IMG/VR virus record: IMGVR_UViG_2541047931_000013
Length of the DNA: 7,842 nucleotides
Reading direction: 5' to 3' (one strand)
Origin: a virus
Taxonomy: Duplodnaviria > Heunggongvirae > Uroviricota > Caudoviricetes
Positions 652-7,842 of the stretch are shown in pieces. Each line of letters starts with the position of its first letter. The first letter of the stretch is position 1. The notes beneath the pieces are model-generated. The model was not told the origin of the DNA. It made no database searches and worked only from the letters and a program-made list of their open reading frames with translations. The position numbers were made by a program, and so were the translations under genes.

Positions 652-1123
652 TCACTTTTCACGCCCCTCCAAAGCAATGGCGGGGCATTACCTGTTTACC
701 CATCTCCACCAGCATAGATAATTCTATGCCTAGCCATTGCTATATCTGTTCGGCTTAGTTCATCTGTAATCACCCCATCTCTAAAAGATACGCCAGCTAT
801 CATTAGCCATTTTAAGCCATCATGAGCCATTATAAACCGACTCAACCAATTGAATAATAAAAGATAAAAGGAAATGTAAAAACATGATGAATGACGATGA
901 AAGATATAACTCTTTGATAAAACAATGATTTTTTTAAACTGGTAACTAATTGAAAATAAAGAAAATAATTATCCCACCTGCATTTGCAATCTTTCAGTGG
1001 ATCGGTATTTTTTCAATAGATTTATAATTTCTTTCAATAGATTCTAGTCTTAATAGAAATACTGTATGGGCAACCACTAAACTTTAAGTAACTTCATGAG
1101 CTATCAGAGAGGTTACTAGAGAT
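652..1123. promoter_or_regulatory. AT-rich non-coding control region upstream of the alpA-like gene
   Basis: About 470 bp with no convincing ORF. Four AGC(C/T)AT repeats at exact 10-bp phasing (795-800, 805-810, 815-820, 825-830). Perfect -10 hexamer TATAAT at 1023-1028, flanked by the 12-mer TTTCAATAGATT at 1011-1022 and 1032-1043. SD GAGAGG at 1107-1112 ahead of the ATG at 1124. Confidence 0.4.
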
Positions 1124-1342
1124 ATGACAGCACACAAGCCAGCATCATCAGCTATCCCAACAACTGGATACATCCGTCGCTTTCGCATGCCGGAATTGCT
1201 AGGTGTTTCACTGCCTACTATTGATAGATGGGTTAAAAATGGCACTCTTCCACGCCCAGTGAAGCTAACAGATAACGTGACTGCGTTTGATGCGGTGGAA
1301 ATTAATAACTGGCTGGCAGAACGCCGAAACACATCAGCCTGA
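1124..1342 (+). CDS. alpA: AlpA-family phage transcriptional regulator / excisionase-like (winged-helix) protein
   Basis: 72-aa product with the motif IRRFRMPELLGVSLPTIDRWVKNGTLPRPVKL...DAVEINNWLAER, typical of the AlpA/Vis family. SD AGAGGT lies 10 nt upstream. Size and position are typical for island regulators. Confidence 0.8.
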   Translation: MTAHKPASSAIPTTGYIRRFRMPELLGVSLPTIDRWVKNGTLPRPVKLTDNVTAFDAVEINNWLAERRNTSA

Positions 1343-1416
1343 TTAAATGACTACGGGGGATGACGTTCAACCCCACCAGCAAACAAAAGTAACTTAATTT
1401 AATAGCAGGTGTTTTT

Positions 1417-2115
1417 ATGAAACTGCGAAAAACGCCCGTACAGGGGCAGGGCTTCGTTCGGCCTGAAACCAGCATGAGCGATATTCTGGTTCGCCACAAA
1501 GCGGAGTCGCGCATTGATTCCCGCTTATTTGCTGAGCGTATTGGCATAAAGCACAAAAACCTTTATTCGCTCATTCAGAAGCACAAAACCGGATTGCGTG
1601 AACTGGGCATCCTTCCGTTTCAAACGGAGCGATTAAAAACCCGTCAAAACGGGGAGCGTGAACATAAGTTTGCCCTCCTGAATAGCGATCAGTTTGATTA
1701 CATGTGTCGCATTGTGCGCGGTCGTGATGATGAACGCATGAACCGCTTCAAGCTGGATGTTACGAAGGCATTCGCAAAACATCGCGCTACCGAGCCTGTA
1801 CGCCGTGAATATCTGCCAGGCTATCACGAAAGCCGTGACGGGCTTAAAGCACTGGGCGCAGAACGTCACCATTACATCAATCTGGCACGCGCAGAGAACC
1901 GTGTTACAGGTCTGGTAACTGGCGAACGAGGCACAGCCAGCGAGCAGCAGTTAGGCTTGCTGATTGTCATGCAGAAAATCGAACAGGCCGCATTTGAGGA
2001 GGCGATACAGAACGGCATGACACCTACCGAAGCAGTGCGGGAGGTTGCCCGACGCATGGAGACATTCGCCAGCCTGATGACATCTGAGCCGTATCTGGGG
2101 GTAAATCATGCTTAA
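1417..2115 (+). CDS. Rha-family phage regulatory protein (antirepressor-type)
   Basis: N-terminal IDSRLFAERIGIKHKNLYSLIQKH...EHKFALLNSDQFDYMCRIV...RFKLDVTKAFAKH fits the Rha (Phage_pRha) pattern. SD AGGTG lies 5 nt upstream of the ATG. The stop overlaps the next start (ATGCTTAA). Confidence 0.7.
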   Translation: MKLRKTPVQGQGFVRPETSMSDILVRHKAESRIDSRLFAERIGIKHKNLYSLIQKHKTGLRELGILPFQTERLKTRQNGEREHKFALLNSDQFDYMCRIVRGRDDERMNRFKLDVTKAFAKHRATEPVRREYLPGYHESRDGLKALGAERHHYINLARAENRVTGLVTGERGTASEQQLGLLIVMQKIEQAAFEEAIQNGMTPTEAVREVARRMETFASLMTSEPYLGVNHA

Positions 2116-2449
2116 GGATTTCGCCGCAATTATTCCGGTATCACCTGGCATTATTGGCGGACATGAAACAGCCATTGTCAGCGCCAGAGCGTTACATAAG
2201 GCGCTTGGTGTGAAGCGTGATTTCACTACATGGATTAAAGGGCGTATTGATCAGTACGGATTTAAAAATGGCGTGGATTTTGAGTTTGTAGAAAATTTGA
2301 CCTCCCCCAATCCGGTGAGCGCAAAATCTCGCCAACGTGTAGAGCACGACTACCTGAGTACCATCAACATGGCGAAAGAACTTGCGATGGTCGAGCGTAC
2401 CGAACAGGGCCGCGCTATTCGTCAGTACTTCATCAAATGCGAGGAGTAG
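2108..2449 (+). CDS. AntA/AntB-type antirepressor, N-terminal domain only (ends at an in-frame TAG)
   Basis: ARALHKALGVKRDFTTWIKGRIDQYGFKNGVDFEF ... MAKELAMVERTEQGRAIRQYFIKCEE matches the AntA domain. SD GGGGG lies 6 nt upstream. The frame continues into ORF 2468-2851 after a single TAG. Confidence 0.7.
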   Translation: MLKDFAAIIPVSPGIIGGHETAIVSARALHKALGVKRDFTTWIKGRIDQYGFKNGVDFEFVENLTSPNPVSAKSRQRVEHDYLSTINMAKELAMVERTEQGRAIRQYFIKCEE

Positions 2450-2467
2450 CTACACAAAGTAGCGCCA

Positions 2468-2851
2468 GTGCGTTCCGCAGCGTTACGCCGTGAACTGAAA
2501 GCCCGTATCACCGTTGCCAGCTACTTTAAGCCGATGTGTGCCGCGCTGGAGGCGTACCGCGCTGAACTGGGTAAAAACACGCTCCAGCACCACTACACCA
2601 CGGAAGCCAATATGCTGGCGCGTATCGTGCTGGGTGGCATGAATGCAAAACAGTGGGCGCAGGCGAACGGCATCACAGGCGAACCACGCGACCACATGAG
2701 CACGCTGCAGCTTGAGCACCTTTCTTACCTTGAGCAGAGCAATATCACGCTGATTGAGTTAGGCCAGGACTACCACCAGCGGAAAGCTGAATTAATTCGT
2801 CTTTCGCAACGCTGGTTAGCCCGCCGCATGGAGGTGAGCAGCCATGCGTAA
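2468..2851 (+). CDS. antirepressor C-terminal-domain protein; probably the C-terminal half of the AntA-like gene split by an amber codon
   Basis: Same reading frame as 2108-2449 (2468 minus 2108 = 360). EANMLARIVLGGMNAKQWAQANGI...RDHMSTLQLEHLSYLEQSNITLIELGQ resembles the C-terminal region shared by phage antirepressors. Own start is a GTG with no SD at proper spacing. Confidence 0.5.
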   Translation: MRSAALRRELKARITVASYFKPMCAALEAYRAELGKNTLQHHYTTEANMLARIVLGGMNAKQWAQANGITGEPRDHMSTLQLEHLSYLEQSNITLIELGQDYHQRKAELIRLSQRWLARRMEVSSHA

Positions 2852-3401
2852 ACCTGTCTTTTATGCCGGTCGCACTGAAATCTCTGTCATTAAATTCGAT
2901 GACATTCAGGTGCGCATAGTGAGTATCAACGGCGAGCCGTGGTTTGTTGGCGCTGATGTGTGTGCCGCGCTGGAAATCAGCAATGTTACTGATGCCGTTT
3001 CAGTTCTGGATAACGATGAGGTAATGACCCTAGCTTTAACCGAGGGTCATTCCGGTAAGCGTGGTGGTGCCAGAAGCTGGAATGTTGTCTCTGAATCAGG
3101 TTTCTACAAACTGATCGCCCGCAGCCGTAAAGCTTCCACACCAGGCACATTTGCGCACCGTTTCAGTAACTGGGTATTCCGCGAGGTGATTCCTTCAATC
3201 CGCAAAACGGGGGGTTATGGTGTTCCGTTTGCCATGCTGAATGATTTCAGTAAACGTCAGGCTGCATATCAACAGGAAGCCAGCAAACGCGGTTACAGGT
3301 TACAGCAATGCAAAGAGGCAAAAGATGCACTGGAACGAGAAGAGCGGGCGCTATGGCGTAAATATCAGCCTGATTTTCTGGAGGGTGAAAGCAATGTGTA
3401 A
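2844..3401 (+). CDS. Bro-N domain protein (phage antirepressor-like)
   Basis: VIKFDDIQVRIVSINGEPWFVGADVCAALEI...FYKLIARSRKASTPGTFAHRFSNWVFREVIPSIRKTGGY is the Bro-N signature. SD GGAGGTG lies 7 nt upstream. The ATG overlaps the previous stop. Confidence 0.75.
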   Translation: MRKPVFYAGRTEISVIKFDDIQVRIVSINGEPWFVGADVCAALEISNVTDAVSVLDNDEVMTLALTEGHSGKRGGARSWNVVSESGFYKLIARSRKASTPGTFAHRFSNWVFREVIPSIRKTGGYGVPFAMLNDFSKRQAAYQQEASKRGYRLQQCKEAKDALEREERALWRKYQPDFLEGESNV

Positions 3402-4431
3402 CGATCCGAACGTTACAGAAAGAAAAAGCGCCCCGTTGCTGGATAACAGGCAAAACAAAGGCGACCGGGATAGGTCGCCAGTGGGAACAAAGGAAATCAA
3501 ACGCATCGCCAACAATGCCAGATTTGCGGCTGGTGGGCAATGTGATCAGTGTGCTGGCTTGCTGGTGGGCTATTCCTGCTCTTTAGCATCGCCATACTGC
3601 GATGTTTTCCAGGTATGCGATTCCATTTTTGTGCGCCTGTACTCTTTTAAGAACTTCTCAAGGACAAACGCACATGGCGCAAATCTTTCCTGTTCTTGTT
3701 CGCTTACCGCATTTTTGCGTTGTTTTTTCCTGGATGAGGATAATTTCTTTAATGATTTGTCAGTCATCGTAGATACCTGTAACCCTGTGCGCCACAGTTC
3801 ACCGCACCACGGCGCTGGTGATGGTTACTCCTGCTCTTTGGCCTTCCGGCGCTGTTCATATTTTAATTTGCGTCCACAGGCATCTAAGACCCATGCGGAA
3901 AAATTAGCACTAGGATTAGTTAATTTTTCTTGTTCAACACTGGCATCAATCCCATCTATAAGCTCGTGCGGGAATCGAATATTTTTCTTTGCTGATTTGT
4001 TGTTTGTGTTTCCGCTAGACATTGGTACACCTCACTTAAATGGATTTGATGGGCGCACACAATACAGCAAAAAAAGTGAGAAGTTAAGTATTGACATGTG
4101 CGCACACATGATTTTAATCTGTGCGCACAGTTTGGGTTGCATTGCTCAAATTAAGCAACGCCCCGCAGTGCTCGCAACACATGCAGGGCGTCTAACCACC
4201 AACGATAGAAAGCGTATCGAGGTAGCTATGTTAAATCATACCACACACCCGCAAGGGCGGGACTCGCACAACCTGAATAAATACATCTGGCGTTTTATCG
4301 CCCTGAGCACCGCACAACCACGCGTAATACACATCGAGGCCGCCAGCGAACAGGAAGCCCGTCAGCAATCCCCGGCTGGCTGCGTGATGGTATTTACTGC
4401 CCGCATCCGTCAGGGGGAATACTATGCGTGA
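3394..4431 (+). CDS. alternative model: long + strand ORF (345 aa), possibly a shadow of - strand genes; mutually exclusive with the - strand small ORFs and with the 4228 start
   Basis: ATG at 3394 with SD GGAGGG 8 nt upstream, overlapping the Bro-N stop (ATGTGTAA). Frame open for 345 codons. The product is about 5% Cys and F/S/L-rich in its middle part, which looks like antisense translation of K/E/A-rich coding. Confidence 0.25.
   Translation: MCNDPNVTERKSAPLLDNRQNKGDRDRSPVGTKEIKRIANNARFAAGGQCDQCAGLLVGYSCSLASPYCDVFQVCDSIFVRLYSFKNFSRTNAHGANLSCSCSLTAFLRCFFLDEDNFFNDLSVIVDTCNPVRHSSPHHGAGDGYSCSLAFRRCSYFNLRPQASKTHAEKLALGLVNFSCSTLASIPSISSCGNRIFFFADLLFVFPLDIGTPHLNGFDGRTQYSKKSEKLSIDMCAHMILICAHSLGCIAQIKQRPAVLATHAGRLTTNDRKRIEVAMLNHTTHPQGRDSHNLNKYIWRFIALSTAQPRVIHIEAASEQEARQQSPAGCVMVFTARIRQGEYYA
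3445..3479 (-). terminator. putative Rho-independent terminator for - strand transcripts
   Basis: Perfect 7-bp GC-rich stem GGCGACC (3460-3466) / GGTCGCC (3473-3479) with 6-nt loop. On the - strand it is followed by UUUGUUUUG. No T-tract on the + strand side. Confidence 0.4.
3570..3767 (-). CDS. small basic protein (65 aa), paralog B of a tandemly duplicated pair; possible DNA-binding protein
   Basis: ATG at 3767-3765 with AGGT 7 nt upstream. C-terminal AKEQE shared with the 3825-4022 product. An interrupted inverted repeat CTGTG-CGC-CACAG (3785-3797) lies just upstream. Confidence 0.35.
   Translation of the reverse strand: MTDKSLKKLSSSRKKQRKNAVSEQEQERFAPCAFVLEKFLKEYRRTKMESHTWKTSQYGDAKEQE
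3825..4022 (-). CDS. small protein (65 aa), paralog A; putative ribbon-helix-helix-like repressor divergent from the replication operon
   Basis: ATG at 4022-4020 with GAGGTG SD 5 nt upstream. KNIRFPHELIDGID...NFSAWVLDACGRKL has a strand-helix-helix layout resembling CopG/Arc-type proteins. Candidate -10 TATTGT / -35 TTAACT on the - strand at 4059-4064 / 4082-4087. Confidence 0.4.
   Translation of the reverse strand: MSSGNTNNKSAKKNIRFPHELIDGIDASVEQEKLTNPSANFSAWVLDACGRKLKYEQRRKAKEQE
4053..4130. promoter_or_regulatory. back-to-back divergent sigma70-like promoters overlapped by palindromic operator-like sites
   Basis: + strand: -35 TTGACA (4091-4096), 16-bp spacer, -10 TTTAAT (4113-4118). Perfect palindromes TGTGCGCACA (4097-4106, in the spacer) and CTGTGCGCACAG (4119-4130, over the predicted start). 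Half-site GCGCACA at 4053-4059 overlaps the predicted - strand start. Confidence 0.5.
4228..4431 (+). CDS. small protein (67 aa), first gene of the replication operon; possibly Icd-like (unverified recollection)
   Basis: ATG at 4228 with SD GAGGT 4 nt upstream. Product MLNHTTHPQGRDSHNLNKYIWRFIALSTAQPRVIHIEAASEQEARQQ... has ordinary composition. Its stop overlaps the next start. About 100 nt downstream of the predicted + promoter. Confidence 0.45.
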   Translation: MLNHTTHPQGRDSHNLNKYIWRFIALSTAQPRVIHIEAASEQEARQQSPAGCVMVFTARIRQGEYYA

Positions 4432-7319: not shown

Positions 7320-7748
7320 ATGACGGCGCAAATATCAGCTTACGGGCGGCTGGTGGCTGACCCGCAGTTAAAGACCACCAGCAAGGGCACACAAATGGCG
7401 ATGGCGAGTATGGCGGTCCCCCTTCCATGCAATCAGACAGATGACGGAACGGCGACGATGTGGTTATCCGTCCTGGCGTTTGGCAGACAGGCTGACGCAC
7501 TGGCAAAACACCACAAAGGCGAACTGGTGAGCGTGGCCGGTAACATGCAGGTGAGCCGGTGGACGGGCCAGAACGGCGAAACGAGGCAGGGATGGCAGGT
7601 TATCGCAGACAGCGTAATCAGTGCGCGAACGGCGCGACCGGGCGGCAAAAAAGGCCAGCAGGGGCAGGCTACTGATGCACTGAACAGGGCAAAGCAACAG
7701 ACAGGCCAGCACGATGATCTGAACCGCCCCGGGAATCCTGGAGACTAA
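7320..7748 (+). CDS. SSB-like (OB-fold single-stranded DNA-binding) protein, 3' end disrupted by IS insertion; native sequence ends at 7719
   Basis: AYGRLVADPQLKTTSKGTQMAMASMAV...WLSVLAFGRQADALAKHHKGELVSVAGNMQVSRWTGQNGETRQGWQV matches the SSB OB-fold pattern. SD GGAGA lies 9 nt upstream. From codon 134 the ORF reads into the IS inverted repeat and stops at 7746-7748. Confidence 0.7.
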   Translation: MTAQISAYGRLVADPQLKTTSKGTQMAMASMAVPLPCNQTDDGTATMWLSVLAFGRQADALAKHHKGELVSVAGNMQVSRWTGQNGETRQGWQVIADSVISARTARPGGKKGQQGQATDALNRAKQQTGQHDDLNRPGNPGD

Positions 7749-7842
7749 ACTTCCTGAGAAAGAGGTAAACAGGATGACTAAAAATACTCGTTTTTCCCCC
7801 GAAGTCCGTCAACGGGCAGTCCGTATGGTTCTGGAAAGTCAG
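7720..7842 (+). mobile_element. left end of an IS3-family insertion sequence (IS629/IS1203-like), continuing beyond the window
   Basis: Starts TGAACCGCCCCGGGAATCCTGGAGACTAAAC, which I recall as the IS629 left inverted repeat. orfA begins 54 bp in. Exact identity is from memory and unverified. Confidence 0.75.
7774..7842 (+). CDS. IS3-family transposase OrfA, N-terminus only (truncated by window end)
   Basis: Translation MTKNTRFSPEVRQRAVRMVLESQ is a typical IS3-family OrfA helix-turn-helix N-terminus. SD AGAGGT lies upstream at 7761-7766. Confidence 0.8.
   Translation, partial: MTKNTRFSPEVRQRAVRMVLESQ

Follow-up and report, generated by a model that had tools for sequence, protein, structure and literature searches.

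We investigated a stretch of Escherichia coli DNA of 7,842 nucleotides (nt; IMG/VR record IMGVR_UViG_2541047931_000013), referred to below as the window, which lies in a mobile island and is 100% identical to scaffold KE702258.1 of strain UMEA 3271-1 (GCA_000461115.1). We found that two open reading frames (ORFs) of this island, at 2108-2449 and 2468-2851, are very probably the halves of one gene of the AntA family, inactivated by a G-to-T change at position 2447 in the UMEA 3271-1 lineage. The split gene, called antA here, is an ordinary lineage-restricted pseudogene, with a known gene family, a known island type and no new genetic arrangement. The biological weight of such a strain-lineage pseudogene in an accessory island is small, and its value lies in annotation: the two ORFs stand in GenBank as separate 'hypothetical proteins' of UMEA 3271-1 (ERB24868.1 and ERB24869.1), both predicted by gene callers, and should be annotated as a pseudogene, as pieces of one disrupted antA-family gene.

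The split gene and its intact relatives

On the plus strand, antA occupies 2108..2851, collinear with an annotated 744-nt coding sequence (CDS) of E. coli ExPEC XM, and would have 247 codons if intact; here it carries a premature stop. A preliminary description of this DNA, made from its letters and translations, had reported two ORFs in one frame, separated by TAG at 2447-2449 plus six sense codons, and we reproduced all of these coordinates and codons. The first ORF (2108..2449, from ATG 2108 to the TAG) encodes 113 amino acids (aa), comprising the complete AntA domain and about 15 residues of the long helix that follows. Its designation as an AntA domain held up clearly, with a match to Pfam PF08346 at residues 24-98 that covers the full model (1-68) at 84.3 bits against a cut-off of 27 (9e-24), and it also matches phrog_5817/377, 'anti-repressor Ant'. 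The start codon overlaps the stop of the preceding rha gene as ATGCTTAA and has a good Shine-Dalgarno sequence, GGGGGUA (−9.7 kcal/mol). The premature amber codon at 2447..2449 replaces Glu114, GAG having become TAG by T for G at 2447. The six in-frame sense codons after it, CTA CAC AAA GTA GCG CCA (2450..2467), are normally codons 115-120, and their translation, LHKVAP, matches the ELHKVAP of intact proteins exactly. The stranded remainder, codons 121-247, forms a mechanical ORF of 127 aa at 2468..2851, from GTG 2468 to TAA 2849-2851. The fused product had been put at about 247 aa, and the repaired product is indeed 247 aa, equal in length to the annotated intact protein WP_050436474.1, from which it differs solely by I8L and T179N.

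The closest relative of the island in a complete genome is that of ExPEC XM, with 99.6% identity over 6,950 bases. At the place of the two ORFs, ExPEC XM has one 744-nt CDS encoding WP_050436474.1, an 'antA/AntB antirepressor family protein' of 247 aa, and 2108..2851 differs from this CDS by three substitutions and no indel. The codon at the stop site in ExPEC XM is GAG, aligned without an indel, and with one 247-aa CDS in the closest intact element the sole cause of the split is therefore a G-to-T transversion at 2447. The more distant islands of PapRG-04-4 and O104:H4 2011C-3493 likewise have GAG, in single CDSs of 266 aa. When an 81-bp query centred on the stop site was compared with all 5,426 complete E. 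coli genomes, T at 2447 was found in none of the 93 genomes matching the segment, the ten best of which were each one base off. In addition, the intact 247-aa allele was present on 730 contigs versus about 7 for the split allele.

Protein comparisons gave the same picture. The best 120 matches in a large protein collection were 229-283 aa long, and the 35 homologues that we aligned from among them, covering about ten enterobacterial genera (Escherichia, Salmonella, Citrobacter, Klebsiella, Yersinia, Pectobacterium, Serratia, Enterobacter and Pluralibacter), were all single proteins of 241-283 aa. They share the motif F-I-x-C-E-E, in which C-E-E is invariant, and the next residue, where the window has its stop, is E, A or K. 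The alignment with intact homologues proposed in the preliminary description thus places a sense codon at this site throughout, GAG in three islands and E, A or K in the 35 proteins. That description had also named a finding that would speak for two true genes, namely homologous elements with two separate genes and a conserved start for the second; neither this arrangement nor a conserved stop was found in any annotated relative or in the 35 aligned homologues, and the single-gene state was universal. Its proposal of a recent nonsense mutation in a normally fused gene is well supported by GAG in the closest element, the lack of an indel and the single CDSs of all relatives.

The three differences between antA and its counterpart in ExPEC XM are all non-synonymous (I8L, E114* and T179N); of the differences in bro-N and the DUF927 gene of the same island, 8 of 9 and 10 of 11, respectively, are synonymous. 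The second rare substitution, at 2643 (+), turns ACT (Thr179) into AAT (Asn) in a column that is invariant in the 35 homologues. We considered it as a sign of relaxed constraint after inactivation and rejected it, because Asn179 also occurs in one intact gene (NZ_CM163382.1, among 195 genomes); it is no proof of decay. Two other disrupted alleles, in public assemblies, fall in the same 90% cluster as the 113-aa product and are independent of it: P0122, on 4 contigs, has a 16-nt deletion between CGCGCTG direct repeats that gives a 172-aa frameshifted product, and P0128 has a frameshift giving 140 aa. They suggest repeated loss of antA and are consistent with a dispensable accessory gene.

Split antA thus resembles the ordinary nonsense pseudogenes of E. 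coli prophages and islands in draft genomes, with the same kind of single-base stop, in a non-essential gene of a mobile element, in one lineage, and no feature sets it apart from them. Its relatives in the AntA/AntB family (PF08346) share the neighbours (rha upstream and bro-N downstream) and the insertion site; the difference is codon 114, which is TAG here, so that only the N-terminal 113 aa can be made. The family's antirepressor name is inherited from Ant of P1/P7, and in this subfamily the role is putative; we found no paper on this AntA subfamily. The intact protein presumably has a regulatory role.

The C-terminal module and the predicted fold

The part of the gene beyond the stop had been described as an 'antirepressor-type' C-terminal region. 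This was loosely right, in that the module is shared by AntA-, Rha-, KilA-N- and Bro-N-headed proteins, although it contains no recognised Pfam or NCBIfam domain. Neither the 127-aa half nor the repaired 247-aa protein had a Pfam or NCBIfam match outside AntA, and Pfam gave no match in the C-terminal half to the ANT/KilAC-type antirepressor C-terminal domain (PF03374). Among phage protein families, the sole match of the 127-aa half is to phrog_2657, 'transcriptional regulator', and lies in the C-terminal part of that family (121-225 of 243). When this half was compared with the whole library by HMMER, 258 representatives (50% clustering) were returned; among the best 150 of them, 102 are at least 190 aa long and carry the module at the C-terminus, behind Rha (46), AntA (24), KilA-N (21) or Bro-N (3). 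The shorter matches include obvious fragments, such as P0158, which begins inside the AntA domain. Judged by its sequence relatives, the C-terminal half is a module common to proteins of the domain-swapping 'Bro network', has as yet no domain model and normally does not stand alone, and its occurrence behind Rha, KilA-N and Bro-N heads is typical of the domain swapping among proteins of this network. By BLASTP, neither the C-terminal half of the neighbouring Rha protein nor the neighbouring Bro-N protein was similar to the C-terminal half of AntA. The module (window 2468-2851) is a candidate for the definition of a new domain family. Among phage records, one of 769 matches covers at least 80% of the query, that of Edwardsiella phage EPP-1 (89%, in one piece); the other phage matches listed reach at most 57% coverage, all in the N-terminal part.

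The intact 266-aa form, modelled with AlphaFold2 (mean predicted local distance difference test score, 81), comprises an N-terminal alpha/beta domain (17-114), a continuous helix (118-172) and, at 179-265, a bundle of helices. The site of the stop is residue 133 of this model, early in the continuous helix. In the model, the AntA domain has a beta-hairpin and a winged-helix fold like those of KilA-N/APSES and DdrC, and the predicted structure of the intact protein resembles DdrC of Deinococcus over both domains. A description of DdrC from 2022 gave it no known structural homologues, and this predicted likeness is the only unexpected by-product of our analysis; if confirmed, it would tie DdrC to a large family of mobile-element proteins. 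However, homology is unproven because DdrC of Deinococcus radiodurans (PDB 7qvb, 7udi and 8u0g) has an identity of 12-19% and template modelling scores (TM-scores) of 0.3-0.42 to the modelled protein, and was not detected among PDB sequences by phmmer or by a profile of the 35 sequences at E-values up to 10, a search that returned no significant solved relative. DdrC is also a chromosomal, damage-induced nucleoid protein, unlike antA, a regulator of a mobile element.

DdrC forms a domain-swapped dimer, in which a bundle of four C-terminal helices forms the dimer interface and has a share in both DNA-binding sites (PMC9303277). The intact antA gene probably encodes a two-domain, DNA-interactive 'Bro network' regulator of 247 aa, with the AntA domain, a helix of about 55 residues and the C-terminal helical bundle. 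Translation from ATG 2108 ends at codon 114, and the 113-aa fragment keeps the DNA-binding domain without the long helix and the bundle, which, by analogy with DdrC, the protein would need in order to dimerise and to bind DNA fully; the 127 codons downstream are no gene of their own. On this analogy, a null or strongly hypomorphic allele is expected, and we infer that the truncated product represents a loss of function.

Alternatives to a simple loss of function

The exact 127-aa product was found on contigs of five accessions (GCA_000461115.1, SRR958727, in a contig common to three samples, SRR30350110, SRR4067481 and SRR29117206). These five differ in where their contigs end, and the TAG itself was verified in three of the contigs (L004, L005 and L006). 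A search for the exact 113-aa product returned ten places, seven of which, short Logan contigs (L007-L013), we left uncounted. They were rejected as carriers of the TAG: they end one base past codon 113, that base is G, and they are truncated wild type. All seven break there because the last 31-mer with the allele-specific A at 2417 ends at 2447. A 37-mer of the TAG allele had no exact match in metagenome contigs of JGI or in IMG/VR; the IMG/VR result is uninformative because the wild-type 37-mer is absent from it as well. The sequences that carry the TAG are otherwise identical, and their recurrence is no measure of how far the allele has spread. The only differences seen are three single-nucleotide polymorphisms in the contig of SRR30350110 (L016). 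We considered whether they prove an isolate to be independent and rate them as weak evidence: their distance from the end of the contig is 40-70 nt, they are in the YlcI-like duplication (window 3939-3969), and they may stem from noise in the assembly.

The preliminary description had offered a sequencing error and readthrough in an amber-suppressor host as alternatives to mutation. That the true genome has GAG and an intact gene is highly improbable. UMEA 3271-1 is a draft assembly, the change concerns a single base and no complete E. coli genome has the T, yet the 127-aa and 113-aa products and the TAG occur in independently assembled contigs with differing boundaries, and a substitution is not a typical homopolymer-type assembly error. 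A one-off sequencing or assembly error is very unlikely, given that at least five sequencing accessions contain the TAG allele. Equally improbable is amber suppression or programmed readthrough, in which a suppressor tRNA or leaky termination would let ribosomes pass the TAG and make functional protein of full length, possibly as a minor, regulated product. The halves are still in frame, the downstream half has no further stop or frameshift, and in E. coli a TAG with C after it terminates comparatively weakly. However, the stop is not conserved in any relative, and nothing in the window favours decoding: it contains no tRNA gene, the fold of 2420-2540 (121 nt around and after the stop) is no better than shuffled sequence (z = −0.24), and an Rfam scan, including immunity RNAs such as C4/CI, found nothing at gathering thresholds. 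The lack of further decay instead reflects the youth of the allele, because it is identical or nearly identical to intact ones.

A working split, in which the 113-aa and 127-aa proteins are both made, the second by termination and reinitiation at GTG 2468, and act separately or in a complex, has little more in its favour and is very unlikely too. The GTG lies 18 nt past the stop, a distance compatible with reinitiation; both ORFs were called by gene callers, some short representatives of the module consist mainly of the C-terminal domain, and stand-alone AntA-domain families exist (phrog_6904). Against this, no homologous island is so arranged, and many of the short representatives look like fragments, as P0158 does; in the 102 long representatives, the module is always C-terminal to another domain. 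Moreover, the break falls inside the predicted continuous helix, not in a linker, and the GTG has no Shine-Dalgarno sequence. The second ORF had been noted to have only a GTG start without a properly spaced ribosome-binding site, the GAGGAG before the TAG being about 21 nt away, and this proved correct: GAGGAG stands at 2441-2446, 21 nt upstream of GTG 2468, and the best anti-Shine-Dalgarno pairing is −1.0 kcal/mol (−0.6 at the internal in-frame ATG 2534), compared with −4.3 to −10.6 kcal/mol for eight gene starts of the window that we scored. Independent translation of 2468-2851 is therefore unlikely. There is a slight chance, a shade greater than for these alternatives, that the 113-aa product, a complete AntA DNA-binding domain similar to natural stand-alone AntA proteins, regulates the island or its helper phage in a dominant-negative or altered way, binding the normal DNA or protein target without the dimerising bundle, perhaps together with a trace of protein read through UAG-C. 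If true, this could explain the persistence of the allele in a lineage.

Some points do weigh against inactivation by a nonsense mutation in one lineage as the full account. The relatively weak termination at UAG followed by C would allow a trace of full-length product. The stand-alone AntA-domain proteins of phages in phrog_6904 are about 95 aa long, and the 113-aa fragment could therefore retain some activity. What this family member does is, moreover, read from its sequence. The five accessions, which are represented by assemblies and not by reads, may be different isolates or re-sequencing of one strain, and the only differences seen among them are those three polymorphisms, at a contig end in a paralogous repeat.

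The island and its neighbourhood

The island is inserted between yicC and dinD. Its genes are, in order, an integrase, a 216-aa ORF, alpA, rha, antA, bro-N, two small minus-strand YlcI/DUF3950 genes, an Icd-like gene, DUF4222, a DUF927 primase-type gene, ssb, ProQ/FinO and three large uncharacterised genes. A plan of four zones (integration, Bro, replication and late) has been described for the phage-inducible chromosomal islands (PICIs) of Gram-negative bacteria (Mageeney et al. 2023, PMC10111431). The gene order here agrees with it (L014 and L001), with an inward integrase and alpA, a Bro zone of Rha, AntA and Bro-N genes, and then a replication zone based on the DUF927 primase. The assignment to the Gram-negative PICI type is made from this gene plan. 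The distal part differs from it: three large uncharacterised genes take the place of phage late genes that could be recognised as such, and no capsid or packaging gene was recognised there.

The alpA-type regulator gene (1124..1342, +) opens the rightward gene block of the island; its Pfam matches are Phage_AlpA (weak) and HTH_17 (faint), and it is annotated as a helix-turn-helix regulator in relatives. The Rha-family gene (1417..2115, +; Pfam Phage_pRha, 31 bits; a Rha family regulator in relatives) overlaps the antA start with its stop, and the ATG of the Bro-N gene (2844..3401, +; Pfam Bro-N, 5e-18) in turn overlaps the antA stop as ATGCGTAA. Both junctions are overlaps of 8 nt (ATGCTTAA and ATGCGTAA), which suggests coupled translation of rha, antA and bro-N. 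The bro-N gene keeps a strong Shine-Dalgarno sequence of its own, GGAGGUG (−10.6 kcal/mol, 7-nt spacing). We also considered Rho-dependent polarity on bro-N and rejected it, as there is no clear C-rich, G-poor skew downstream of the stop in antA.

In sister islands that are otherwise 97-99.8% identical (8 complete genomes, e.g. VTB96815v), a gene of the GIY-YIG nuclease family replaces antA (locus L020, 2108-2884). It has the same ATG overlapping the rha stop and the same overlap onto bro-N, and shares the last ~40 nt of antA. The swap looks like a cassette exchange at fixed junctions inside the gene ends. Besides this exchange, the points of this analysis that can be reused elsewhere are the C-terminal module common to Rha, AntA, KilA-N and Bro-N regulators and the DdrC-like predicted fold. 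In O104:H4, antA comes directly after alpA with no rha between them, and its 5' end is almost identical to the leader and first 17 codons of rha in the window (MKLRKTPVQGQGFVRPE, window 1380-1470; locus L003, 2900-2990). In PapRG-04-4, which is laid out like O104:H4, the likeness is limited to the coding part PVQGQGFVRPE and does not take in the leader or the initial codons. Whatever domain comes next, the Bro zone's first gene keeps its 5' end constant.

Downstream of bro-N, the two YlcI/DUF3950-like paralogues, as read in the window, encode 65 aa each at 3570-3767 and 3825-4022 (−). Across both of them, a stop-free frame of 396 codons runs on the plus strand (3241-4431) and ends as the Icd-like gene (~4228-4431); Icd-like genes annotated in relatives have very different lengths, from 204 to 555 nt. 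Four terminator-like hairpins lie just downstream of bro-N on the minus strand (3397-3518), facing bro-N, and the region 900-3600 contains 9 terminator-like sites versus 3.1 expected from shuffles. Similarity to the closest islands runs out at ~7700-7719, shortly before ssb ends. Between ssb and ProQ/FinO, UMEA 3271-1 has a 23-codon ORF and a fragment of an rve_2 transposase (locus L014, 15307-16418; window 7700-7842), and in ExPEC XM ProQ directly follows ssb; the region with the rve_2 fragment is probably an insertion sequence remnant. In addition, the distal part of the ExPEC XM island (locus L019, 4842-12189) carries three consecutive large genes (843, 686 and 918 aa) with the annotation 'bacteriophage protein' or hypothetical, which occupy the usual late/accessory site of PICIs and may be defence cargo.

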